Positions 47,634 to 61,133 of a stretch of 64,000 bases of DNA are shown piece by piece; position 1 is the first letter of the stretch; each line of letters starts with the position of its first letter. Origin of the DNA: an uncultured Actinomycetes bacterium (GTDB taxonomy: Bacteria > Actinomycetota > UBA4738 > HRBIN12); NCBI GenBank assembly GCA_963704885.1, contig CAVPIB010000004.1:576001-640000 (forward strand). Reading direction: 5' to 3'. The notes beneath the pieces are model-generated. The model did not search any database. It saw only the letters and a list, made by a program, of their open reading frames with translations, and was not told where the DNA came from. Made by a program: the position numbers and the translations under genes.

Positions 47634-48536
47634 TCAGCTGGAGGACTCAGCGGCCTCGGCCTCACGGCGCAAGACCTCGGAGAACGAGCTGATCGCCACC
47701 TGGATCTGCCCCTTATCGGGCGGCTGGGTCGTGATCCGCTGAAGCCACAGACCGGGAGCCATCAACACGCGCATGCCCCCGGAGGACTCGAACCGGGCTC
47801 CCAGACGCAGGGCCTCGTAGGCCAGGCCCGCGATCAAAGGGATGGCCAGGATCCGGGACCCGATCCGCCACCAGATCCCCGGTGTTCCGAACAGCGTGAA
47901 GACGAAGATCGTGATGATCATGACGATGATCAGGAAGTTCGTGCCGCAGCGAACGTGCACGGTGGAGTACCGATCCACGTTGTCGGGGTCCAGCGTCTCG
48001 CCGTGCTCGTAGGCGGCGATGGTCTTGTGCTCGGCGCCGTGGTACTCGAACACCCGGTGGATGTCCTTCGTCCGACCTATCAGCCACAGGTAACCCACGA
48101 AGAGCGCCACACGGAACAAGCCCTCGAGGATGTTAGTGAGCAAGCCGGCTCCCACCTCCCGATGGACCCACGCGAAGAGCACGGTCGGGCCCAGGATGAA
48201 GACGCCCACGAAGAGGACCATCGCGAAAGCTAGGGCCAATCCCACCTGGCGGGACGTCAGTTGCTCGTCCTCCTCCATGGATTGGTTGGTGGCGATCAGC
48301 AGCGCGCGGGTGCCTATCGCGAGCGACTGACCCAGCACGATGATCCCGCGGAGGAAGGGCTTGGCCAGGAGCGGGTGACGCTTGGCTATCGAATCGATGG
48401 AGTGGGATTCGACGTAGATGTCACCGGCGGGCTTCCGAACCGCGACAGCCCAGTGGTGGGCGCCACGCATCATGACGCCTTCGACCACGGCCTGTCCGCC
48501 GTAGAGATGCGCCGACGCCGGAGAGCGTTCGGTCAC
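47634..48536 (-). CDS. DUF1385 domain membrane protein
   Basis: GGQAVVEGVMM, YHGAEHK, HVRCGTNF, PGLWLQRITT. Confidence 0.9.
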   Translation of the reverse strand: MTERSPASAHLYGGQAVVEGVMMRGAHHWAVAVRKPAGDIYVESHSIDSIAKRHPLLAKPFLRGIIVLGQSLAIGTRALLIATNQSMEEDEQLTSRQVGLALAFAMVLFVGVFILGPTVLFAWVHREVGAGLLTNILEGLFRVALFVGYLWLIGRTKDIHRVFEYHGAEHKTIAAYEHGETLDPDNVDRYSTVHVRCGTNFLIIVMIITIFVFTLFGTPGIWWRIGSRILAIPLIAGLAYEALRLGARFESSGGMRVLMAPGLWLQRITTQPPDKGQIQVAISSFSEVLRREAEAAESSS

Positions 48537-48552
48537 GATGCCGTGCGGGCGA

Positions 48553-48771
48553 TCAGCTGGACGAACCCGGCTGGGTCTTGGCGTACCGCCGCTGGAACCG
48601 CTCGACGCGGCCGCCCGCGTCCATGAGCTTCTGCTTGCCCGTGTAGAACGGGTGGCAGTTCGAGCAGATGTCCGAGCGGATCTCGCTCACCGTGGAGCGC
48701 GTCTGGAACGTGTTGCCGCACGAGCAGTGCACGTTCGCGATCTGGTATTCGGGATGGATGCCTTGCTTCAT
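48553..48771 (-). CDS. rpmE: 50S ribosomal protein L31 (Zn-binding type)
   Basis: [20 protein letters not shown]. Confidence 0.97.
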
Positions 48772-48802
48772 GCTCTCGTCTCCTCTCGGGCGGCCCAGCC
48801 TA

Positions 48803-50507
48803 CTAGTTGCCGGACGGCGCCTTCGCGATCTCCTTCAGGAACTGCTCGTTCGACTTGGTCGCGCGGATCTTGTCCGTCAGGAGCTCCAACGCCGCGCCCG
48901 GCTCCAGCGCGTGTAGCACGCGGCGGAGCTTGACGACGAGTGCCAATTCTTCGGGCGGCATGAGGAGCTCCTCCTTGCGGGTGCCCGAGGCGTCGACGTT
49001 GATGGCCGGGAACAACCGCTTCTCCGCTAGTGAACGATCCAAACGAAGCTCCATGTTCCCGGTGCCCTTGAACTCCTCGAAGATGACCTCGTCCATGCGG
49101 GAACCGGTCTCAACGAGCGCGCTCGCGATGATGGTGAGCGACCCGCCCTCCTCGATGTTCCGCGCCGCCCCGAAGAACCGCTTCGGCGGGTAGAGCGCGG
49201 TGGAGTCCACGCCACCGGACAAGATCTTGCCGGAAGCCGGTGCGGCCAGGTTGTAGGCGCGAGCTAGGCGCGTCACCGAGTCGAGGAGGATAGCGACGTC
49301 CTGGCCCATCTCGGCGAGACGGCGGGAACGTTCCAGCACGAGCTCAGTCACCTGGATGTGCTGGTCGGCCGGCTTGTCGAACGTGGAGTACACGACCTCG
49401 GCCGCCTCAACGGTCCTCTGCCAGTCCGTGACCTCCTCGGGCCGCTCGTCGACCAGAAGGACGATCACGTGCGTATCGGGGCTCGACGCGATGATGCCGT
49501 TCGCGATCTGCTTGAGGATGGTCGTCTTGCCGGCCTTCGGTGGCGACACCACCATCCCCCGCTGACCCTTCCCGATAGGTGCGACCATATCGATGATCCG
49601 CTGCGCCACCTCGAGCGGACCACCTTCCAGCCGGAACCGCTCGTCGGGGAACAACGGCGTTAGCTTGTCGAAGTTCGGGCGGGCGCGGGCCGCCTCGACG
49701 TCGAGGCCGTTAACCGAGTCCAGGTCGAGCAGAGCGAAGTACTTCTCGCTGTCCTTCGGCCGGCGCACCTTGCCGGCCACCGTGTCACCCTTGCGGAGTG
49801 CGAACCGCCGAACCTGCGACAGGGAAACATAGATGTCCTCGGGCCCGGGCAGATACCCGGACGTTCGAAGGAACCCATAGCCCTCGGGAAGGATGTCCAG
49901 CAGACCGGTCAGGACCGGCGCGTTCTGCATCTCCTCCGCCCGCTCCTGTTCCTCGCGGACCCTTCGCTCCTCTCGCGAGCGGCGTCGATCCTCACGCGAA
50001 GGGCGCGGACGTCGATCGCGACCGTCCTGGGTTCGGTCGCCCTGGGTTCGGTCGCCCTGGGTTCGGTCGCCCTGGGTTCGGTCGCCCTGGGTTCGGTCGC
50101 CCTGGGGCCGATCGCCTGGGTTCGGTCGCCTGGGGCCGATCGCCCTGCGTTCGGTCGCCTTGGGGACGATCCACCTGCGACCGCTGATCGCGAGGACGAT
50201 CCTCGCTGGGACCTCGCTCGCGAGGGCGATCCTGCTGAGATCCTTCGTCTTGGCCCTCACCGGATCGGTCCGTTCGAACCTCACCGTTCATCACCTCGGC
50301 GCCCTCGTCGTCGGACGGACTCGCCACGGGCTCGGTCGGCGCGCGTGCGGCCGGTGTTTCATCAGAACCGGAGCCCGACACGATCGCGTCGATCAGGCCG
50401 GCCTTGCGCAGCTTCTGGGCACCTTCGATGCCCAAGCTCTGCGCGATCTGCTGCAATTCGGGGATCAGTTTCCCCTCCAGGACGCTGCGGTCAATCGTCG
50501 TATCCAT
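48803..50507 (-). CDS. rho: Transcription termination factor Rho (two apparent 1-nt deletions near 50116 and 50130)
   Basis: N-domain [14 protein letters not shown]...[10 protein letters not shown] in ORF 49992..50507; [14 protein letters not shown] and FKGTGNME in ORF 48803..50284. Confidence 0.96.
50026..50170. repeat. 15-bp tandem repeat in the rho N-terminal insertion, encoding QGDR(T/P)
   Basis: Five perfect CCTGGGTTCGGTCGC copies at 50026-50100 plus about five degenerate copies. Confidence 0.95.
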
Positions 50508-50511
50508 GAGG

Positions 50512-51174
50512 CTATGCCTCTCCCTTCAACTCGTTCTGAAGCTTGGTCCAGTCGGCCTGGAACTTCTCCAGACCGAGGTCGGTGAGTGGGTGCTTCACCA
50601 GCTTGGTGAAGACGTCGTAGGGCATCGTGGCGATATCGGCGCCTGCGAGCGCCGCATCGATCACGTGCATCGGGTGGCGGAGCGACGCCGCCAATACGTT
50701 CGTCTGGTAGCCCTGCATCTGATAGACCTCGCAGATCTGCCGGAGCAAGAACATGCCGTCGCTCCCCACATCGTCGAGACGGCCGAGGAACGGGGAGACG
50801 ATGTACGCGCCGATCTCGGCCGCGAGGATCGCCTGCGCCGGTGAGAACACCAGCGTGACGTTGATCCGGATACCTTCATCGGTCAGCCGCTTCCCGCACT
50901 GAAGCCCGTCCGGAGTCATCGGCACCTTCACGACGACGTTCGACGCCTTCAGTGAAAGCCGGACGCCCTCCTCGTACATGGCGTCTGCCTGCGGCTGGGT
51001 GGTCTCGAGCGAGATGTCGCCGTCGACCTCGTCCAGGATCAGCTTCCATACCGCGTCTGGGTCCTCGTTCTCCCTCGCCACGAGCGACGGGTTCGTGGTG
51101 ACACCCTTCAAGACGCCCCAACGGTTGATCTCGCGGATCTCCTCGATGCTCGCGGTGTCGAGGAACAACCTCAT
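50512..51174 (-). CDS. tal: Transaldolase/fructose-6-phosphate aldolase family (short type)
   Basis: FLDTA, GVTTNPSL, VVVKVP, NVTLVFS, SPFLGRLDD, HPLTD. Confidence 0.92.
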   Translation of the reverse strand: MRLFLDTASIEEIREINRWGVLKGVTTNPSLVARENEDPDAVWKLILDEVDGDISLETTQPQADAMYEEGVRLSLKASNVVVKVPMTPDGLQCGKRLTDEGIRINVTLVFSPAQAILAAEIGAYIVSPFLGRLDDVGSDGMFLLRQICEVYQMQGYQTNVLAASLRHPMHVIDAALAGADIATMPYDVFTKLVKHPLTDLGLEKFQADWTKLQNELKGEA

Positions 51175-52133
51175 GTCGTCTGTCCTTTCAGTACGGGCTC
51201 GGCGCCGGCGGCCTCCTCGACCGCACGCGCCGTGGTGCGTTCCATGACCAGGTCGATAACAGCGGCGATCGACTGGTCGAATCCGTAGTTGGGGATGATC
51301 GGCACGTCGTGCGCGAGTGCCTGGCTCTTCACATAGGACTGGAGTCGCCGGATGTTGTCGAAGCCCTTCGCGTAGCGCCGCGCCGGCCGAGCGGCTATCG
51401 CATCCTCACGTGCCCCGAAATGGGAGCGATGGCGCTCCACATCGTCCACGGAGATGACGAACGGTACCGCCAGGATCCTGCCGGCGAACGCCTTCAGGTC
51501 GAAGAACCCCGGCACCACGTGCGCGCCTTCGATGATGATGCTGGTCCCCTCCAGGGCGGCACGTTCGATCAGGGCGTTGATCCCGACCGCGACGGCAGCC
51601 GTCTGCTCGCGGAAACCCACGATCAACGGATCGGCCGAACGCGTGGGGGGCTCGCGGAGCGCGACGTCGGCCTCGAAGGACGAGGTATGCAGCGTGGGCA
51701 TCAACTCCGGAGAGAACATCGAGCGCATGACCTCGCGGATGGCATCGGTAGCCACGAAGCGCACGATCCCAAGTCGGGCGGCCAGCTGTGTAGCGATCGT
51801 TGACTTGCCGACCCCGGTGGCACCGCCTATCAGGATCACGATCGGGACATCCAGCTTCTCGACCTCGCGCCAGCGAAGGAAGTTCTTCGCATAGCGATCG
51901 CCCGCGAGGTGAGTCAGCACTTCGAGCGCCAGCTCGGCGAGCTCGTCCGTGGTGAGGGAGGTGGAACCACGCTCACGCAGTCGATCTTCGATCTCCTCGG
52001 CCACCTGGTAGGCCCTGAACGGCGAGAGGCCGGTGACCATGACTTGCGAAGCCATGAGCCCCTTGGAGTACGGCAGCCCAGGCTCGCGATCCGAGATCAC
52101 GATGTGAGGGGTCTTGCTTCCCTTCTCTGTCAC
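51171..52133 (-). CDS. pgk2: 2-phosphoglycerate kinase (ATP-cone plus P-loop)
   Basis: PYSKGLMA...AYQVAEEI ATP-cone, ILIGGATGVGKSTIA, TDAIREVMR, LHTSSF, IIEGAHVVP, HRSHF. Confidence 0.85.
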   Translation of the reverse strand: MTEKGSKTPHIVISDREPGLPYSKGLMASQVMVTGLSPFRAYQVAEEIEDRLRERGSTSLTTDELAELALEVLTHLAGDRYAKNFLRWREVEKLDVPIVILIGGATGVGKSTIATQLAARLGIVRFVATDAIREVMRSMFSPELMPTLHTSSFEADVALREPPTRSADPLIVGFREQTAAVAVGINALIERAALEGTSIIIEGAHVVPGFFDLKAFAGRILAVPFVISVDDVERHRSHFGAREDAIAARPARRYAKGFDNIRRLQSYVKSQALAHDVPIIPNYGFDQSIAAVIDLVMERTTARAVEEAAGAEPVLKGQTT

Positions 52134-52137
52134 GCCT

Positions 52138-53472
52138 CTACCTCGTTCGTTGACGTTCCAAGGCCTGGTCGATGACCCCGCCCAGCGCCGTGTCGAGGTC
52201 CATCTCGCCCTCGACCACGATCGCTCGGTTGTCCACGAACACGATCTCCGCCCCTCGAGCAAGAGCCCGCTCGCACGCCACGTCGACGGCGGCAGCCTTC
52301 AACTCGGTGAGGAGGACGTCGAACGCCTCGGCTCCCTCCATGTCCTCCGCCAGTCCGGCCCGATCGGCCAGCCTGGTGCTCCAACCCACGACGGTGCATC
52401 CGTTGGCGGCCTCGAGGTGAGCTGCCTGCCTCGATGCCACCTCGGCTGGCGCCGTGGTGGTTAGGAACACCCGCTCACCCTTCACGTCTGCCAGCGGTAC
52501 CGGGATGAAGTCGGTAAGGATCTGCCGCGGATCATCGAGGAAGCGGCGGACGTGAGAGCGAAGTGCGGAGAGATTCTCGTGCCCAGCGACTGGGCCGGTA
52601 GCCATGGTAACAACGACAAGGTCCGACAACAAGAGCCTGAAGGGACCAAGATATCCGCCCAGATACTCCGGCGGAGCATCCGCTGGCACGACCAGCACGC
52701 CTGCGTCCCACGGGATCGGGGGTACGGACGCGCCGCTTCCTTCCAGGATCACAAGATCGGCCCCCTCGGCGGCCACCGCGACCTGCGCCGCTTCGCGGAC
52801 GTTCGTGGCGAACGGGGCGCCCGCCAGGCCACCGCCCACCCGGCGCGCCCCGACGGTTGTCACCCCTGTCGTAAGCGCGTCCTCCAGGTAGTCAGACGCC
52901 GCGTGCTCTCCCTTGCGGACCCGCTCGAGCAGGTCGGCGAGATCCACTGAGCCGGCGGGCGCAACCTGAGGTTCCGCGGGGCCTCCGCGTCCCATGGCCA
53001 CGACGACGGGAGTGAACCCGCGCCGCGCGGCCGTCCTGGCCAGCTCGCCGGCGATCGCCGTCTTGCCGGTTCGCTTGCCCGTTCCGATCACTGCGATGGT
53101 TGGAAGCACGAGCGGCGGTCCCGTGATGGGTGGGTCCAACCGGAAGTCGGCTCCCAGATACGGCAGGCCCCGGACGAGCGCCACCGCCACCAGCTCCATC
53201 CGCTCTCGGTAACCAAGGACGGGTTCGTCCGACAGATCCAGAACCGCGTCAGGTCCGAACTCGTCGATCGCGTCGGCAAGCGCCGCCATCCGGTCGTCGC
53301 CCACCACTCGGGTGGGGACTCCGAGGTCCGGCACCGCCGTCGGGTCGATCTTCTCCGTGCCCCCCACGAACAACGCGCCGACGACGTCGTGACCTCGCTC
53401 GCGCGCAACCTCGATCCCCCACCGGGTAACAGGCGGGTAGTGCTCGCCGTCGACCAGGACGATCACCCGCAT
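52138..53472 (-). CDS. cpgS: Cyclic 2,3-diphosphoglycerate synthetase
   Basis: LVDGEHYPPV, GGTEK, DLSDEPV, GTGKRTGKTA, AMGRGGP, HAASDYLEDA, EGSG, LTELKAAAVD. Confidence 0.88.
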   Translation of the reverse strand: MRVIVLVDGEHYPPVTRWGIEVARERGHDVVGALFVGGTEKIDPTAVPDLGVPTRVVGDDRMAALADAIDEFGPDAVLDLSDEPVLGYRERMELVAVALVRGLPYLGADFRLDPPITGPPLVLPTIAVIGTGKRTGKTAIAGELARTAARRGFTPVVVAMGRGGPAEPQVAPAGSVDLADLLERVRKGEHAASDYLEDALTTGVTTVGARRVGGGLAGAPFATNVREAAQVAVAAEGADLVILEGSGASVPPIPWDAGVLVVPADAPPEYLGGYLGPFRLLLSDLVVVTMATGPVAGHENLSALRSHVRRFLDDPRQILTDFIPVPLADVKGERVFLTTTAPAEVASRQAAHLEAANGCTVVGWSTRLADRAGLAEDMEGAEAFDVLLTELKAAAVDVACERALARGAEIVFVDNRAIVVEGEMDLDTALGGVIDQALERQRTR

Positions 53473-53528
53473 AGGATGAAAGAGACCTCCTCTCGGATCG
53501 TGGATGGAGCCGGTTGAACCGCCCTCGC

Positions 53529-54318
53529 CTAATCGCCGACAGGCGCGACGCGCTCCTGCACTGGGAGCTCGTGCTCCCGGTGGACGGGCCCGCCCGACAG
53601 CGAGAACCGCGCCATCACCTGCCCATCGCCGAACGGGAACTTCCGGTGGATCGTTACTTCGTCCCCGTCGAACTCGAGCACGTTGTAGCAGGGCTTGGTG
53701 TAGCCGCGCACCCGCAGGGAAGAGACCGTTCCGGCGTTCGCGACATACATGTCCTCCAGGCGCCAGACGTAAGGGACGTGCTTGTGACCTGATAGCACGA
53801 CCTGCACACCCGCGTGGATGAGGACCTCCAACAGGTCGCCTGCGTCCATGACCGTGCTCCGCTCGCGCCCGGTTCCGGGGATGGGCAGCAGATGATGGTG
53901 GAGCACGAACACCCTCAGTTCCGCAGGTTGCAGGAACTCGCGGGAGATCCACTCGTAGCGGCCCCGGCCGATCCTGCCCTCGTTCTGATCCGGCTCTGAG
54001 GAGTCCATGCCGACCACGCGGATGCCGTCGATGTCTACCGACCAGCTCCGCGGGCCGATCAGGTCCTCGAAGTGGAGGTAGCCCACGTTGCGGGAGTCGT
54101 GGTTCCCGGGAACCGTGTACAGCGGGAGCCTCGATCCGGTCCGCATAGGCCACCCAGCTCTTGTACTCCTGACGGAAGCCTTCGCTGGTGAGGTCGCCGC
54201 TCACGACGACCGCGTCGGGCTTCAGCTCGTTCACCTCTGAGATGACGCGGTTCATCAGGTTCGGGACGAAGTACGGCGAGCCGACGTGCGGATCGGAGAT
54301 ATGGGCGATCGTGACCAC
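53529..54318 (-). CDS. Calcineurin-like metallophosphoesterase (frameshift near 54125)
   Basis: ISDPH, SGDLT, PGNHD, LHHH and SGHKH motifs split over two frames. Confidence 0.88.
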
Positions 54319-54345
54319 GATGTCTTCAGTGTAAGGGTCGGTGTC

Positions 54346-55200
54346 TCAGCCCTGGGTGATCTCGACCCCGGCGGGGGCCACGGCGAGCCTGAGGACGCTC
54401 CACCCATCACCGGGATCGGGAACAGTCGTGTCGTCCGATTCGAAGGCGAGCAGCGTAGGCCCGGCGCCCGAGAGGCAGACGGGCACGCCGGCCGCTCGCA
54501 GATCCATGAACACGCCCTCGACCGTTGGAACTAGAGCCAGGCGAACGTCCTGGTGCAGCCGATCGCGGAGCGTCTGCGTGAGCAACCCGGGCTCCGACGT
54601 GAGCGCCACCACGGTAGCCGCCGCGTGAGCCGAGTTGAACACCGCATCGGAGCGTGCGATCGGATCCCCCAGCGCGGCGCGCGCCTCGACCGTCGCGAGC
54701 CGGACGTCGGGTATCAAGGCCACCGGTCGGAGCGATGGATGCGCATCCAGGCGGATCACACCGTCTCCGAACGCGATCGTGAATCCACCGGCGATCGCCG
54801 CGGCCGCGTTGTCGGGATGGCCCTCCATCTCCACGGCGAGATCCAGGATCTCCTCAGGCTCCAGCCCCAGATCGAGCAATCGGTCGGCCAGGGAGATGCC
54901 CGCCACGCACGCGGCCGCCGACGAGCCGAGGCCGCGTTCGAGCGGGATGCGATTCACGCCGTGGAGCGCGACGGACGGGATCGGCGCCCCCCCGGCGCGC
55001 GCCGCGTGGGCGAGCGCCCTGCTCACCATGTCCGTGCCGTCCGAGGAGAGCTCGTCGGCACCCTCGCCCTCCCAGGTCACACCCGGTTCGGCTTCGGTGT
55101 CGAGGGTCACGTCGTTCCACAGGTCGAGGGCCAGGCCGAAGCAATCGAAGCCGGGTCCGAGGTTCGCGGAGGTCGCAGGGACCCGGGCGGTCAACCTCAC
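54346..55200 (-). CDS. thrB: Homoserine kinase
   Basis: VPATSANLGPGFD, IPLERGLGSSAA, EGHPDN, LSGAGPT. Confidence 0.96.
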   Translation of the reverse strand: MRLTARVPATSANLGPGFDCFGLALDLWNDVTLDTEAEPGVTWEGEGADELSSDGTDMVSRALAHAARAGGAPIPSVALHGVNRIPLERGLGSSAAACVAGISLADRLLDLGLEPEEILDLAVEMEGHPDNAAAAIAGGFTIAFGDGVIRLDAHPSLRPVALIPDVRLATVEARAALGDPIARSDAVFNSAHAAATVVALTSEPGLLTQTLRDRLHQDVRLALVPTVEGVFMDLRAAGVPVCLSGAGPTLLAFESDDTTVPDPGDGWSVLRLAVAPAGVEITQG

Positions 55201-55204
55201 GGCA

Positions 55205-56293
55205 TCAGAGTCCGAGCTCGGCGGCCACGGCCGTGGGATCCGTCGGCACCACGGCGGGGTGCGCCGCACCGGCGATCGCCCACTCCGGGTCCTTCAGACC
55301 GTGGCCGGTGAGCACGCACACGACCGTCGCGCCCTTGGGGAGCACGCCGTCGGCGTGCAGATGCAAGAGGCCAGCGATGCTCGCTGCGCTCGCCGGTTCT
55401 GCGAACAGCCCCTCCCTCGCGACGCGCCGATAGGCGGCCAGGATCTCGCGGTCGGTCACCGCCAGGATCTGCCCCTCCGACTCCGTCGCGGCCGCGACGG
55501 CCTTGTCCCACGACGCCGGGTTCCCGATCCGTATCGCTGTCGCGATCGTCTGCGGATCCTTCACCGGCGCGCCTTCCACGATCGGAGCTGCCCCTTTCGC
55601 TTGGAACCCGAAGAGCTGTGGCGGCTCGGCTATCAGTCCGTCCGCCAGGTACTCCGAATAGCCGAGCCAGTGGCTGGAGATATTGCCGGCGTTCCCGACG
55701 GGCACGCAATGGATGTCGGGCGCGCGTCCGAGCGCGTCACAGATCTCGAACGCGGCGGTCTTCTGTCCCTGCAGCCGGAACGGATTCACGGAGTTCACGA
55801 GCGTGACCGGATAGCGGTCCGCCATCTCCTGCGCCAGCTCGAGCGCCGCGTCGAAGTTGCCCTCCACCTCCAAGACCCGAGCGCCGTGCACGAGCGTCTG
55901 AGCCATCTTCCCGAGGGCGATCTTGCCCTTCGGCACCAAGACGGCGCATGTGATCCCGGCCTTGGCGGCGTACGCGGCGGCGCTCGCGGACGTGTTGCCC
56001 GTGGACGCACAGACCACGGCCTTGGCGCCCTCCTCCATCGCCTTGCTGATCGCGAGCGTCATCCCGCGATCCTTGAACGAGCCCGTGGGGTTGGCGCCGT
56101 CGTACTTCAGCCACACATCGCAGCCGGTCTCTTCTGACAACGGCTCCGAGCGGACTAGCGGCGTGCCGCCCTCGCGCAGCGTGATCACAGGTGTGTCGTC
56201 GGACACGGGGAGACGAGAGCGGTACTCCTCGATCAGGCCTCGCCACTGATGAGCGCCGCCACTAGTCTGATGCAGACTAGTGGCCTCAGACAT
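55205..56293 (-). CDS. thrC: Threonine synthase
   Basis: [33 protein letters not shown]. Confidence 0.96.
56258..56284. repeat. Perfect 12-bp inverted repeat in the 5' end of thrC
   Basis: GCCACTAGTCTG-ATG-CAGACTAGTGGC. Confidence 0.9.
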
Positions 56294-56307
56294 GCCGTCG
56301 CCGACAC

Positions 56308-57597
56308 TCACTCCTCACCCTCCACCCGCAGGACACTCGCCACCGCCCGCACGGCCGGGAGATCTCGGAGCTCCGCCAGGGTCTTCTGGAAGGCTCCCTC
56401 CTGCGCGCGATGCGTGATGAACACCAACGTGGCTTCGTCGGCGAACCCCTCCTGCCACACTCGTTCGATGGACACGTCGTTGTGTGCGAAGTGCTCCGCC
56501 ACCTCGGCGAGAACACCAGGTCTGTCCTCCACGTGCAGGTTCAGGTAGTACTGCCCGCGGGTGTCGTCCATGGGGCGTATCCGGCGCTCGTAGACGCAGG
56601 TGCAGCCGATCCCTCTGGTACCGGCGACGCGGTTGCGAGCGGCGTTCGCCAGATCGCCCACCACAGCGGTGGCGGTAGGATCGCCGCCCGCCCCCTTGCC
56701 GTAGAACATGAGCTGCCCGACCTTCTGGCCCTCAAGGAACACGGCGTTGTACGCATCGCTCACCGATGCCAGCGGATGGGTGACGGGCACCATGGCGGGA
56801 TGCACTCGAGCTGAGACCTCCCCATCCTCCAGCTCGGCGATCGCCAGGAGTTTCACCGCATACCCGAGACGCTTCGCGTCGGCGATGTCCTGCGCCTGGA
56901 TCCCCGTTATGCCCTCGCGGTAGACGTCGCCGGCGACGACTCGAGTATTGAAGACGATCGAGGCCAAGATGGCGCACTTGGCGGCGGCATCGAACCCCTC
57001 GACGTCGGCTGTCGGGTCCGCCTCCGCATAGCCCAGCCGTTGCGCCTCCGCAAGCGCGTCTTGGAACGACCATCCGTGCTCGGACATCTGCGTAAGGATG
57101 TAGTTGGTCGTTCCGTTCACGATCCCGAGGAGCCGGGATACGCGCTCCCCCACAAGGGATTCCTTGAGCGGACGGATCAACGGGATGCCGCCCGCGACCG
57201 CGGCTTCGAACGACAGGTCTACCCCGGCGGCGTCGGCCGCGTCGAACAGTTCCTTGCCGGAGTTCGCCAGGAGTTCCTTGTTCGCGGTGACGACGGCCTT
57301 GCCACGCTCGAAGGCTCGCATGATCAGCGAGCGCGCCGGCTCCATACCGCCGAGCAGTTCGCAGACGATGTCGATCTCGGGGTCGTCGATGATCGAGACG
57401 CCATCGACGGTGAAGACCCCAGCGGGAAGCGGGACACCGCGATCGCGCTCGAGATCGCGGACCGCCACCCGAGTCACCTCCAGGCGGCAGCCGGTCCGAA
57501 GCGCGATGTCGTCGCCGTGCTCATGCACCATGCGGACCACGGCGGCCCCGACGGTGCCGCAGCCGAGGAGGCCGACACGCACGGTCTGCTCGGTCAT
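56308..57597 (-). CDS. hom: Homoserine dehydrogenase with ACT domain
   Basis: [48 protein letters not shown]. Confidence 0.96.
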
Positions 57598-59462
57598 GCT
57601 CCTCGATCCTCTCCGATCCACACCGACATCAAGATCTCGTCCTCGTAGCCGGAGGACTTCCGGGAGTGTCCCATGAGCCGTCCTTCCTCCACGAACCCGA
57701 AGCGCCGATATAACGCGATCGCCGCGTGGTTGTGCGGGTACACCGAGAGCATGATCTTCTCGACGCCCACGCTGCGCGCCCATCGCAACGCCTCGCCCAT
57801 CAGCGCCGCGCCTATACCGCGGCCTCGATGATCGGCCGCCACGGCGATCCCCAGCGTCGCGACGTGCCGCGTCACTGGATGGACCTCCCGTTGGACGAAC
57901 ACGTGGCCGACCACGCGCCCGCCGTCGAGCCCTACCACCTGCGCTTCGCGATCGGTCCAGGAGGCGCGGAATCGCGTCCGATACACCCGTGCGGGTGTGT
58001 TGGCCTCCTCCGTCCTGACGTAGCCGCCCTCGGCGACGATCTCACGCCAGAACGACTGGAACGGGCGGGCGTCGCGAGAACGCGCGGGCCTGAACACGAT
58101 CCCGTCCGGCTTCGCCGGAGGCTCATGCCGGGCCGAGGTCGCCTCCAGCCGATCGAGGTCTCCCGCGTCCTCGCGCCTGAGCCAAAGCGTGGGTCGGGCG
58201 TCTTCGACCGCGACCACCGCGGGCCGGCCTATACGGTTGTAGGCGCTGGCCAGCGGATACGTGTAGGCGCCCGTCGCCGCGAACGCGAGCAGGTCACCCG
58301 GCTGCACGTCGCCCGGGAGCGCCACGGCTTCGGCAAGCACGTCGCCGGATTCGCAATGGCGTCCCACGATGGTGAGATCCCTCTCGTCGGCCGCGCTCGC
58401 CCGGTTGGCGAGCGCCACGGTGTACCGCGCGTCGTAGAGCATGGGGCGGATGTTGTCCGACATCCCCCCGTCCACGGCGATCGCCGTACGGCCGTCGCCC
58501 AACACCCTGCGATCGCCCACCCGGTAGAGCGTGACACCTGCGTTGCCCACGATGCTCCTACCCGGCTCCGCGGCCACTTGCGGAACAGGGAGGCCGAGAT
58601 CGGAGCACCGGCGCATGATCCGCTCCATGACCGCCTCCGCCGTAGCCCCCACGCCGGGGATGCGCTCGTCGGTGTAGGTGATGCCGAAACCGCCGCCGAT
58701 ATCCACCAGCTCGGTATCGAGGCCGTGACGCCGACGGAGGTCGGCGGCCAGTGCGATCAGCACATCCACCTCCTGTAGGAACGGACCGACGTCCGGCACC
58801 TGCGAACCGATGTGAGCATGCAGGCCCACGAAACGGACGTGCGGGAGATCGGCGACCCGCGCTGCCGCCTCCCGAACCTCGAAGGTGGATGCTCCGAAGG
58901 CGGTCGCCTCGTGCCCGGTGGCGATGGACTCGTGAGTGTCGACGCCTACACCCGGGTTCACACGAAGGATGAAGGGCTGCACGACGCCAGCCGCAGCCGC
59001 GACGCGATCGAGGCGCAAGAGTTCGTCCAGGCCATCCGCGATCAGCGTTCCGATCCCCGATCGGACGGCGAGCTCCAACTCCTCGTCGGTCTTGTTCCGG
59101 CCGTGCAGGGCGATACGGGCGGCTGGCACACCTGCACGCAGGCACGCCTCCACTTCGCCGCCGCTCGCGGCCAGCAGGTCGAGCCCCTCGTCGGAAGCCA
59201 GGCGCAGGATCGCATGAGAGGTGAACGCCTTGACGGCATAGAACGTGCGAGGAAAGGCGAGGCGCGCGGCCCGGAGCCTGGAGACCAGGTCCGCCCGGTC
59301 GAACACGAGGAGCGGGGTCCCGTACCTGCCGGCCAGCTCGTCGGCCGGCAGGCCGCCGATCCACAGCCCCTGGGTGTCGAACGTCGCGTTGGCTGACCAA
59401 GGCGTCGGGAGTGCCGGCCGACGGAGCGGAGATCGCCGTCGCCGAAGGGGCCGCGGGCTCAA
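57594..59462 (-). CDS. lysA: Diaminopimelate decarboxylase fused to a C-terminal GNAT acetyltransferase
   Basis: YAVKA, HAHIGSQ, DIGGGFG, EPGRS, HCESGD, then LGIAVAADHRGRGIG...NHAAIALYRRFGF in the same frame. Confidence 0.9.
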   Translation of the reverse strand: MSPRPLRRRRSPLRRPALPTPWSANATFDTQGLWIGGLPADELAGRYGTPLLVFDRADLVSRLRAARLAFPRTFYAVKAFTSHAILRLASDEGLDLLAASGGEVEACLRAGVPAARIALHGRNKTDEELELAVRSGIGTLIADGLDELLRLDRVAAAAGVVQPFILRVNPGVGVDTHESIATGHEATAFGASTFEVREAAARVADLPHVRFVGLHAHIGSQVPDVGPFLQEVDVLIALAADLRRRHGLDTELVDIGGGFGITYTDERIPGVGATAEAVMERIMRRCSDLGLPVPQVAAEPGRSIVGNAGVTLYRVGDRRVLGDGRTAIAVDGGMSDNIRPMLYDARYTVALANRASAADERDLTIVGRHCESGDVLAEAVALPGDVQPGDLLAFAATGAYTYPLASAYNRIGRPAVVAVEDARPTLWLRREDAGDLDRLEATSARHEPPAKPDGIVFRPARSRDARPFQSFWREIVAEGGYVRTEEANTPARVYRTRFRASWTDREAQVVGLDGGRVVGHVFVQREVHPVTRHVATLGIAVAADHRGRGIGAALMGEALRWARSVGVEKIMLSVYPHNHAAIALYRRFGFVEEGRLMGHSRKSSGYEDEILMSVWIGEDRGA

Positions 59463-61133
59463 CCATCGTCGCGCTCCATCGAGTCGGGGGCTGAGACGCC
59501 GAGCAGGCCGAGGAGGTTCGCCAGGATCTGCTTCGTGCCGGCGCAGAGCCAAAGACGTGCCTGGGTAAGCCCTTCGTCGTCGGATACGACGCGACACTCG
59601 CTGTAGAAGCGGTGGAACCTGGCGGCCAGGCTCTGGGACGCGTGCGTGAGCCGGTGGGGTCCGCGCTGCTCGGCCGCGAGCATCAGCTGGCCGGGTACGT
59701 CGGCGAGCGCGCGGAGCAGATCGAGTTCGGCCGGGTGTGCGAGCAGGCTCAGGTCTACGTCGGCGAGCGGCTTCAGCGCGAGACCCTGAGCCTCGGCTCT
59801 GCGCAGGATCGACGCGATCCGCGCGTGCCCGTACTGCACGTAGTAGACCGGGTTCTCCATGGTCTGCTGCTTCACCAGCTCGATGTCGAAGTTGAGCGCG
59901 GAGTCGTTCGAGTACTGGAGCAGGGTGAAGCGAGCCGCATCGGTGCCCACCTCGTCGATCAGCTGATCCAGCGTTATGAACTCGCCGGCGCGCGTGCTCA
60001 TCTTCACCGGCTCGCCGTCACGTAGGAACGCCACGAACTGATAGAGAACGATCTCGACGCTCGCCGGATCGAAGCCGAGTGCCTGCGCGGCGCCCTTCAC
60101 TCGGGCCACCGTGCCGAAATGATCTGCGCCCCAGACATAGATCACGTGGTCGAACCCGCGCGAGAACTTGTCGACGAGGTACGCGCAATCCGCACCGAAG
60201 TACGTGTGCACTCCGTTCGAGCGGACCACCACGCGGTCCTTGTCATCCCCGTAGTCCGTCGACCTGAACCATTCGGCGCCCTCGGCCTCGTATACATATC
60301 CGGCGTCGCGCAGGCGTCGGATGGCCTCTTGGATCTCGCCCGCGTCGGCCAGGTCGCGTTCGGACCGGTAGACATCGAAGAGGACTCCGAACCGCTCGAG
60401 CGTGGCCTTGATCCCCTCGAGGATGCGAGCGGCTCCTTCATCGCGCAGCCGTCGCCAACCGCTCGGCCTCGGGTAGGTCGGCCAGGCCAGCGCCCTCGGT
60501 CCGCAAGATGTCGCGCGCGATGTCTGAGATGTAGTCCCCGCGGTAGCCGTCCTCCGGGAACTCCGCATCGCGGCCGAGCTCCTGGAGGAACCGCGCCTGG
60601 ACCGATGCACCGAACCGGTCCATCTGTCCCCCGGCGTCGTTGAAGTAGTACTCGCGTTCTACCGTCCATCCGGCATGTTCCAGGAGCCGCGCGAGCGCGT
60701 CGCCGATCGCCGCGTTTCGCGCGTGGCCGATGGTGAGGGGTCCCGTCGGGTTGGAGCTCACGAACTCGACCTGCATGCGCCTGCCGTTGGGCGCGGCGCG
60801 GCCGTAGGCCGCGCCGCGGGCCACAACCTCACGCATGGCTTCGTGAAGCCAAGCGTTCGTCAAGAAGAAGTTCAGGAACCCCGGACCGGCGATCTCGACC
60901 CGCTCCAGGAATGGCGCCTCGGGAAGCGCGGCCAGGACGGCCTCCGCGACATCTCGCGGCTGGCGGCTCGCCCGCGCGGCCATGGCGAGAGCCACGTTCG
61001 AAGAGAAGTCGCCGTGGACCTTCTGTTTGGGAACCGATAGCTCTGGCCGCGGCAGCTCGCCCTCGATCCCCAGGCCGGGAGCAGCCGCCTCGAGCGCGGA
61101 GCGGATCAGCTCGAGGAGCTGCTCCTCGATCAC
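59459..61133 (-). CDS. argS: Arginine--tRNA ligase (frameshift near 60452)
   Basis: HGDFSSN, EFVSSNPTGPLTIGHAR, WGADH, KMSTRAG, NPVYYVQYGHAR across two frames. Confidence 0.95.

Follow-up and report, generated by a model that had tools for sequence, protein, structure and literature searches.

We describe here a metallophosphoesterase (MPE) encoded directly upstream of homologs of the cyclic 2,3-diphosphoglycerate synthetase (cpgS) and of the 2-phosphoglycerate kinase (pgk2) in a stretch of 64,000 nucleotides from an uncultured Actinomycetes bacterium (G000:C4:576001-640000, G+C 67%; hereafter the window). Its relatives accompany cpgS in nearly all the cpgS-bearing Actinomycetota that we sampled, accompany pgk2 in the class Thermococci and, for the closest archaeal members, are found inside operons for phosphate uptake (pst). 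From these observations we infer that the MPE may be a cytoplasmic, phosphate-releasing hydrolase of the pool formed by 2,3-diphosphoglycerate (2,3-DPG) and its cyclic form (cDPG), with 2,3-DPG as a substrate and with or without opening of the cDPG ring, a reading which we propose tentatively and hold with somewhat less than even confidence. In this scenario, phosphate would be banked as 2,3-DPG and cDPG by pgk2 and cpgS at the expense of ATP, and the MPE would constitute the degradative arm, hydrolyzing the pool back to phosphoglycerate and phosphate. In organisms possessing pgk2, with or without cpgS, the MPE would stand beside the builders of a phosphate-rich pool, and its presumed task in the operons for phosphate uptake is the release of phosphate from an ester that is either internal or imported. 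We take 2,3-DPG as the substrate because it would be the sole metabolite present in every lineage showing the link.

The breakdown of cDPG and 2,3-DPG has been an activity without a gene since the early 1990s, and the MPE family provides a concrete candidate for it. According to the accessible part of a 2005 review (PMC1224877), cDPG is viewed as a store of carbon and phosphate, and its hydrolysis in M. thermautotrophicus is carried out by a membrane-bound enzyme that K+ and phosphate inhibit; the activity goes back to Sastry et al. 1992, as cited there and in the accessible part of the 2023 paper on the cDPG synthetase structure (PMC10690619). No gene or sequence for this hydrolase appears in the accessible part of the review, and none is named in those of the 2023 paper and of a 2025 synthesis paper. 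The original prediction, which proposed the MPE as a candidate cDPG hydrolase, knew of no gene assigned to this activity; our literature search, with supplementary files outside its scope, agrees, as it found no published gene assignment for cDPG hydrolysis. Within the searched literature, we also found no paper naming both "2-phosphoglycerate kinase" and "metallophosphoesterase".

Association of the MPE with cpgS in Actinomycetota

Within the order of the source organism, 41 genomes were examined and 39 contain the MPE as well as cpgS; the other two, of 76% and 61% completeness, have neither gene. The MPE is found directly upstream of cpgS, on the same strand, and ends 30-135 nt before it in 37 of the 39; one of the exceptions (G033) carries both genes at contig ends and the other (G030) only a paralog elsewhere. 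We then considered a sample of 301 genomes spread evenly across the phylum, Actinomycetota according to the source names, with E <= 1.6e-58 as the threshold for a strong MPE match. Both cpgS and the MPE occur in 173 of them and neither in 123, while four have cpgS only and a single one (G151) has the MPE only, its match lying in the range of the paralog described below. Among the four genomes with cpgS only, the gene stands at a contig end in G226 and G310, and G208 has just a cpgS fragment (E 4e-14); the fourth, G058, is one of 25 further genomes with only weak matches (E 1e-6 to 1e-20) that belong to other MPE families, and the other 24 lack cpgS. The counts for the order and the phylum include the unpublished genomes G008, G029, G037, G041, G057, G085, G118, G154, G181, G205, G257, G269 and G297; row L003 of the ortholog alignment and the paralog locus L030 likewise come from such genomes, and no conclusion rests on them alone.

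The MPE precedes cpgS in 10 of 10 loci taken from different Actinomycetota families, pgk2 comes next in nine (in the tenth family, a diverged pgk2 is located at another genomic site), and a transaldolase gene and rho follow pgk2 in eight.

Survey across bacteria and archaea

To cover both domains, cpgS representatives were taken at 50% identity and an alignment of eight cpgS sequences was scanned against one genome per species, which gave 80 cpgS loci. A gene of the MPE family lies within the flanks in 17 of these loci. Thirteen are of Actinomycetota type, including Coriobacteriia and Aquicultor, and all are ordered MPE-cpgS-pgk2; the other four come from Thermococci and Theionarchaea and show another gene order, on either strand. 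Eleven loci without the MPE belong to Hodarchaeota, Wukongarchaeum, Methanolliviera, Hydrothermarchaeota, Altiarchaeales, Desulfurococcales, Eubacteriales, Bacillota (two), one bacterium and one Actinomycetota, whose contig begins at cpgS; the remainder, from methanogens, are considered below with the substrate. At the level of whole genomes, the family is present in 173 of 177 cpgS-bearing Actinomycetota, 59 of 59 Thermococci, four of four Halobacteriota and 132 of 140 Methanobacteriota, and it occurs without cpgS in 12 genomes of the class Thermococci and 21 of Halobacteriota. Adjacency to pgk2 and/or cpgS is conserved in more than one distant lineage, namely Actinomycetota and the class Thermococci, and it is in these two that the co-occurrence proposed as a check by the original prediction turned out strongly positive.

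The two-domain MPE of class Thermococci

Among 91 genomes of the class Thermococci, pgk2 is present in 71, a two-domain MPE in 72 and cpgS in 59. All 71 genomes with pgk2 contain the two-domain MPE, all 59 genomes with cpgS fall inside those 71, and 19 genomes have none of the three genes. The sole genome with the MPE and without both pgk2 and cpgS (G543) has an MPE interrupted by TGA. Of the 59 genomes with cpgS, 49 have the MPE at most 5 kb away from it, in co-directional as well as in convergent layouts, which shows that the adjacency survived inversion within Thermococci. Twelve of the 71 pgk2-bearing genomes lack cpgS, and in all 12 the MPE is a neighbor of pgk2, at a distance of no more than about 1.3 kb. 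At the cpgS-less locus that we inspected (L146, genome G493), pgk2 with its ATP-cone, a CBS-domain gene and the MPE are found together, and an unrelated gene occupies the position of cpgS. In the class Thermococci, the partner of the MPE is pgk2, not cpgS.

These observations bear on the nature of the substrate. The MPE could be a dedicated cDPG hydrolase, opening the cyclic pyrophosphate to 2,3-DPG, inactive on 2,3-DPG itself, and constituting the missing gene of the methanogen activity, which would catalyze this step. Such an enzyme would agree with its position about 50 nt from cpgS throughout Actinomycetota, with the presence of the family in nearly all cpgS-bearing genomes, with the lack of any published gene for the activity in our search and with the nature of its relatives Rv0805 and GpdQ, which are diesterases, the phosphates of cDPG resembling diesters. 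However, the 12 Thermococci without cpgS would offer no substrate to an enzyme confined to cDPG, so that 2,3-DPG, the product of pgk2, is at least as likely. Most of the Halobacteriota carriers also lack cpgS, the Methanobacteriota MPE is unlinked to it, and the M. thermautotrophicus hydrolase is membrane-bound according to the accessible part of the review (PMC1224877), whereas the window MPE appears soluble from its sequence, with neither leader nor membrane segment. We consider this dedicated function unlikely, and the original proposal of a cDPG hydrolase finds partial support only.

The archaeal proteins linked to the pathway genes are about 505-530 amino acids long and consist of two MPE domains. 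The N-domain retains all the metal motifs and the family signature given below and is 35-38% identical to the window MPE. In the C-domain (residue ~259 to the end; L095, L098, L099 and L106), the DxH motif is lost, GNHD is changed to GHND or GPRD and GHxH to GHGG or GHSS; because several metal ligands are lost, this domain is probably non-catalytic. It is nevertheless conserved and resembles a pseudo-enzyme domain, perhaps with a regulatory role. At L147, where cpgS is present, and at L146, where it is absent, pgk2 and the two-domain MPE are separated by a small gene encoding two CBS domains. In Thermococcales, the same two pathway genes adjoin the MPE as in the window (T. kodakarensis TK1039-TK1038; P. 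yayanosii PYCH_14390-400), but the protein differs from that of the window by the added degenerate domain, by the CBS gene between pgk2 and the MPE, and by its place in a separate clade. TK1039 is listed as a cDPG synthetase, in an operon 1039->1038, and PYCH_14390-400 are called cDPG synthesis genes; in their accessible parts, the papers concerned name the synthesis genes alone, and their supplements (PMC4890121, PMC5663688) may list the neighbors. The presence of the family beside TK1039-TK1038 offers access to it in T. kodakarensis, which is genetically tractable.

At L147 (G570:C1:727865-737998), a gene with TrkA_C and PhoU domains is located two genes past the MPE, on the opposite strand.

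Archaeal relatives in phosphate-uptake operons

Among 151 Halobacteriota genomes, the MPE family is found in 25, and cpgS and pgk2 occur together in the same four genomes, which all carry the MPE as well, in each case on a contig other than that of cpgS. We inspected the loci of six of the 25, picked for long contigs and not at random. In four of these six (L140-L143; genomes G678, G729, G592 and G602), the MPE is inserted between pstS and pstC-pstA-pstB, and in L142 and L143 a PhoU-domain gene adjoins it; the genomes with these pst-operon MPEs have neither cpgS nor pgk2. In an unrooted tree, the bacterial MPEs cluster with the proteins of these pst operons (SH-aLRT 96), while the N-domains of Thermococci form a separate clade (SH-aLRT 100). 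As the bacterial and Thermococci proteins fall into separate clades, the tie to pgk2 and cpgS seems to have been gained at least twice in the family, as far as trees from quick searches with SH-aLRT support, with the long-branch outgroups dropped from the final one, can indicate. The pst-operon MPEs and their PhoU genes, and likewise the PhoU/TrkA_C gene that comes after the Thermococcus cluster, fit the published view, given in the accessible part of the review (PMC1224877), in which cDPG serves to store phosphate and phosphate inhibits its hydrolysis. The pst-operon relatives tie the cDPG pathway to the phosphate economy.

The Methanobacteriota, also represented by 151 genomes, contain the MPE in 138: both cpgS and the MPE are found in 132, cpgS only in eight, the MPE only in six and neither in five. 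As a test of co-occurrence this profile was set aside as uninformative, both genes being near-universal. Here, the MPE adjoins NAC-alpha- and arcS-like genes, named from the starts of the open reading frames (ORFs) and without a family scan. The inhibition of the M. thermautotrophicus activity by phosphate and K+ would fit a phosphate-mobilizing role.

The pst operons also suggest a different explanation, in which the MPE would be a general scavenging phosphodiesterase of the phosphate-starvation (Pho) response, acting on glycerophosphodiesters, cyclic nucleotides or other diesters, and would stand beside cpgS-pgk2 solely through inherited gene order or shared phosphate regulation, the metabolites of the pathway not being among its substrates. 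The closest archaeal relatives, in genomes devoid of the pathway, and the unlinked MPE of Methanobacteriota agree with it, and so does the best relative in the Protein Data Bank (PDB), GpdQ, which is a promiscuous glycerophosphodiesterase. It is further favored by a second MPE clade, a paralog with 43-50% identity (L026-L035) that many Actinomycetota with cpgS, along with one Eubacteriales genome, carry at a site away from cpgS. The contexts of this paralog are unrelated and variable, one family showing CopA-MPE-ROK-LonB and another CofC, FrhB-like, MPE and GpsA. No common theme was found in these paralog neighborhoods, with ORFs called in the highest-GC loci without Pfam matches, and in one Actinomycetota family (f9) the paralog is the only MPE copy among the matches listed. 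Against a general enzyme stands the finding that only one of 124 Actinomycetota without cpgS carries the MPE, since such an enzyme should not be so confined. Likewise, the MPE is matched by pgk2 in 71 of 72 Thermococci, with a broken copy as the exception, and the adjacency outlived the inversion in Thermococci and, according to the quick tree, was gained in two branches of the family. On balance we regard a general scavenger as possible but rather doubtful.

Protein family, fold and nearest characterized relatives

Although the MPE gene of the window is split over two frames by one base (see below), each of its two pieces separately exceeds the gathering score of the Pfam family Metallophos (PF00149; E 2e-6 and 3.4e-8). 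In the read-through protein, the five metal motifs (DxH, GD, GNH[DE], H and GHxH) announced by the original prediction are all present, and the columns that they occupy are invariant in both family alignments, one of 17 and one of 33 sequences. Modeling of an intact ortholog that shares 87% identity with the window MPE gave a pLDDT of 90.2 and a pTM of 0.88, and the model matched 398 PDB structures at E <= 0.001, those listed being nearly all of the MPE superfamily. The five motifs together with the alpha/beta sandwich fold place the protein in the calcineurin-like metallophosphoesterase superfamily (PF00149). Its N-terminus, VVTIAHISDPH, opens directly at motif I, and neither the sequence nor the model presents a leader or a hydrophobic segment, which points to a soluble, cytoplasmic protein.

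The family is recognized by a signature common to both alignments: PGNHD[SA]RNxG, DSSEPD..G.IG, HHHL.P.P.TGRERN..DAGD and GH[KR]H. On the family profile, members score 250-360 bits, the degenerate archaeal domain about 165 and other MPEs less than 60. Invariant or near-invariant arginines specific to the family (SRN, TGRER) adjoin the metal motifs, as expected if the substrate were small and polyanionic.

The original prediction had called the protein CpdA/Icc-like, and this membership did not hold: on the NCBIfam CpdA equivalog (NF008359, cut-off 225 bits), the larger piece of the window scores 24.4 bits, the intact ortholog 48.7 and the two-domain archaeal MPEs 85-96. The YfcE phosphodiesterase model (TIGR00040, cut-off 56.25 bits) was likewise rejected, with 24.2 bits for the window piece and 41.3 for the ortholog L042; this cut-off is reached solely by the two-domain archaeal MPEs (57-69 bits), two of the three being matched in two stretches. 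A protein-cluster lookup returned "metallophosphoesterase family protein" clusters alone. Taken together, sequence and model comparisons suggest a distinct family, so far without a name, whose nearest solved relatives would be the class-III phosphodiesterases Rv0805 and GpdQ.

Rv0805, which with CpdA-Icc represents the class-III cyclic-nucleotide phosphodiesterases (3ib7, 2hy1), shares with the MPE the two-metal calcineurin-like fold and the five motifs, and it is the top PDB match both in sequence (E 3.6e-14) and in structure (Foldseek E 1.5e-17; TM-score 0.66-0.67, query-normalized). In the alignment, the loop DSSEPD..G.IG of the MPE stands where Rv0805 has DTSVPGHHHGEI. The identity between Rv0805 and the MPE is however only 22-23%, and the MPE family has a signature of its own. 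The genomic partners of the MPE are cpgS, pgk2 or pst genes and not cyclases. The best TM-score (0.73-0.74, query-normalized) is obtained with the glycerophosphodiesterase GpdQ of Enterobacter aerogenes (2zo9, 3d03, 2dxl), with a sequence match of E 9e-12 for the window protein and 9.3e-12 for the Thermococcus two-domain protein, although GpdQ is just 21% identical to the MPE. GpdQ is a broad-specificity phosphate-scavenging enzyme, and in this it matches the pst-operon context of the archaeal members; we know of no link between GpdQ and the metabolism of 2,3-DPG or cDPG.

Substrate and proposed role

Several points weigh against a hydrolase of the 2,3-DPG/cDPG pool. Some concern the distribution of the genes: in the cross-domain survey, 52 cpgS loci of Methanobacteria or Methanopyri type have neither the MPE nor pgk2 nearby, and the three genes are dispersed in Methanobacteriota, whose MPE is located at a distance from both cpgS and pgk2. 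The family is absent from the cpgS-bearing genomes G488 and G489 (Bacillota), G490 (a bacterium) and G582 (a Desulfurococcales metagenome-assembled genome), all four of which may be incomplete, and the Actinomycetota genome G058 has cpgS and truly lacks the MPE at the locus. Conversely, 21 of the 25 Halobacteriota carriers of the MPE have neither cpgS nor pgk2. Moreover, the adjacent cases in Actinomycetota are not independent, because the block thrB..MPE-cpgS-pgk2-tal-rho was inherited vertically. Other points concern the chemistry and the physiology. The nearest characterized relatives are diesterases, and by analogy with them cDPG, in which each phosphorus is doubly substituted, would be a better substrate than 2,3-DPG with its monoesters. 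In addition, co-transcription of a hydrolase with the kinase would create a futile cycle unless the hydrolase were regulated. Finally, in its accessible part, the 2023 structure paper calls cDPG exclusive to hyperthermophilic methanogens (PMC10690619), and the literature searched contains no report of cDPG or 2,3-DPG in a cpgS-bearing bacterium. As regards the choice of substrate, diesterase ancestry favors cDPG chemically and the profile of Thermococci favors 2,3-DPG. MPEs that cleave phosphoanhydrides exist.

A broader form of the hydrolase proposal would see in pgk2, cpgS and the MPE a complete and regulated buffer of phosphate and energy, in which the MPE would set the banked phosphate free under phosphate shortage and would derive from pst-operon enzymes, and the ATP-cone, the CBS domains and the dead esterase domain would serve as controls; we put it forward as a speculation with rather low confidence. 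The ATP-cone, which the original prediction attributed to the kinase, is weak in the window pgk2 (23.5 bits, with a cut-off of 25.8) and clear in the Thermococcus ortholog (45 bits). The resemblance to a second-messenger system that it also proposed finds no support beyond the formal likeness of a synthase beside a hydrolase. The clusters themselves are common beyond hyperthermophilic methanogens, since cpgS is present in more than half of the Actinomycetota sample (177/301) and in most Thermococcales (59 of the 91 genomes of the class Thermococci). If the buffer exists, it would be widespread among Thermococcales and among Actinomycetota that are mostly uncultured and largely mesophilic, the pathway would primarily be a phosphate store and not a thermoprotectant peculiar to hyperthermophilic methanogens, and the MPE family would provide the unassigned hydrolase sought since 1992. 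A confirmed cDPG hydrolase would also represent a yield loss to remove in the enzymatic or in-cell production of cDPG.

The one-base break in the MPE gene

The MPE gene of the window reads GAGGC[T]CCCG where 12 of 12 orthologs of the same genus align as GAGGC-NCCG, and it has one extra base. The public contigs of relatives about 93% identical, from three runs of two studies, are each one base shorter at 54124 (GGG run 54124-54126). A single four-letter step restores the MPE of 262 amino acids, which presents no second defect and is, over its full length, 80-90% identical to the intact orthologs of the 12 matching genomes. The frame of the 3' part, whose ORF spans 54146..53529, contains GNHD, the DSSEPD..G.IG loop, HHH..TGRER and GHKH.

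We read this break as an artefact because the essential argS, 6 kb away in the same contig, is also broken over two frames (59459-61133, minus strand), which points to indels of the assembly. The part 61133..60441 contains Arg_tRNA_synt_N and the start of the catalytic domain, and the part 60445..59462 the rest of the catalytic domain and DALR; this is the sole argS of a genome that is 97% complete. Similar splits occur in assemblies of few contigs, G005 (6), G028 (5) and G214 (2), in which cpgS is divided into two adjacent matches, as is the MPE in G028; they are consistent with like indel errors of long-read-style assemblies of this group. The alternative would be a true pseudogene, in which the +1 frameshift inactivates the MPE and the function of the family is lost in this organism. 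In its favor, the extra base is present in the assembled sequence and we found no public run holding the exact source strain, the best share of sampled words being 0.14. The intact remainder of the gene, the split argS and the comparable splits elsewhere make a pseudogene improbable. An assembly artefact is most likely, rather than the true inactivation that the original prediction had listed as a refutation.

The locus and its neighboring genes

On the minus strand of the window, argS, lysA, hom, thrC, thrB, the MPE, cpgS, pgk2, a transaldolase-family gene and rho follow one another in one direction (Table 1). The spacers measure 27 nt between thrB and the MPE, 56 nt between the MPE and cpgS and 4 nt between cpgS and pgk2. 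The original prediction placed the MPE at the head of a cpgS-pgk2 unit. It is indeed the immediate upstream neighbor of cpgS, but a scan of 48500-58000 for promoter- and terminator-like sites was negative (shuffled sequences gave an expectation of 0.5 and 2.9) and thrB stands 27 nt upstream on the same strand, which makes its status of first gene positional only. A lookup of public runs listed no RNA data set containing this stretch. The identity of cpgS is based on its full-length match (residues 2-439, E 4.6e-96) to the solved cDPG synthetase of M. fervidus (PDB 8oru), on the source names of its relatives (cDPG synthetase) and on the precomputed PF27272. The 2-phosphoglycerate kinase homolog scores 294 bits on NF003259, under the equivalog cut-off of 343.

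Table 1. Positions in the window of the MPE gene, of its parts and of the genes downstream.
Feature	Position	Strand	Remarks
MPE gene, whole, two frames	53529-54318	-	read-through protein of 262 aa, five metal motifs
MPE 5' part, frame A	54127..54318	-	GTG start 54318; motif I (DxH, SDPH) and motif II (GD, SGDL); Metallophos 2e-6
Extra-base site splitting the MPE	54124..54127	-	in or beside GGG run (plus strand), CCC on coding strand
MPE 3' part, frame B	53529..54126	-	stop 53529-53531; Metallophos 3.4e-8
cpgS, cyclic 2,3-diphosphoglycerate synthetase homolog, 444 aa	52138..53472	-	GGAGG 5' of ATG
pgk2, 2-phosphoglycerate kinase homolog	51171..52133	-	GTG start; NCBIfam NF003259 1.3e-87
Transaldolase / fructose-6-phosphate-aldolase family gene	50512..51174	-	TAL_FSA 1.2e-56; ATG overlaps pgk2 stop

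Three minor observations were made on the surroundings of these genes. In the Actinomycetota genome G058 (L148, G058:C10:19000-27500), an ORF of 809 amino acids and a signal-peptide-peptidase-like ORF precede cpgS-pgk2-tal, and an ApgM-type phosphoglycerate-mutase-like gene comes after thrC, both names being taken from the ORF starts without a family scan. In the window itself, the frame of the lysA-like diaminopimelate decarboxylase (57594-59597, minus strand) runs uninterrupted into a GNAT acetyltransferase domain at the C-terminus (residues ~500-640), which is either a real fusion or a further assembly indel. The Rho protein (48803-50284, minus strand) contains, in the translation of its ORF, an N-terminal insert in which the pentapeptide GDRTQ is repeated five times in tandem.

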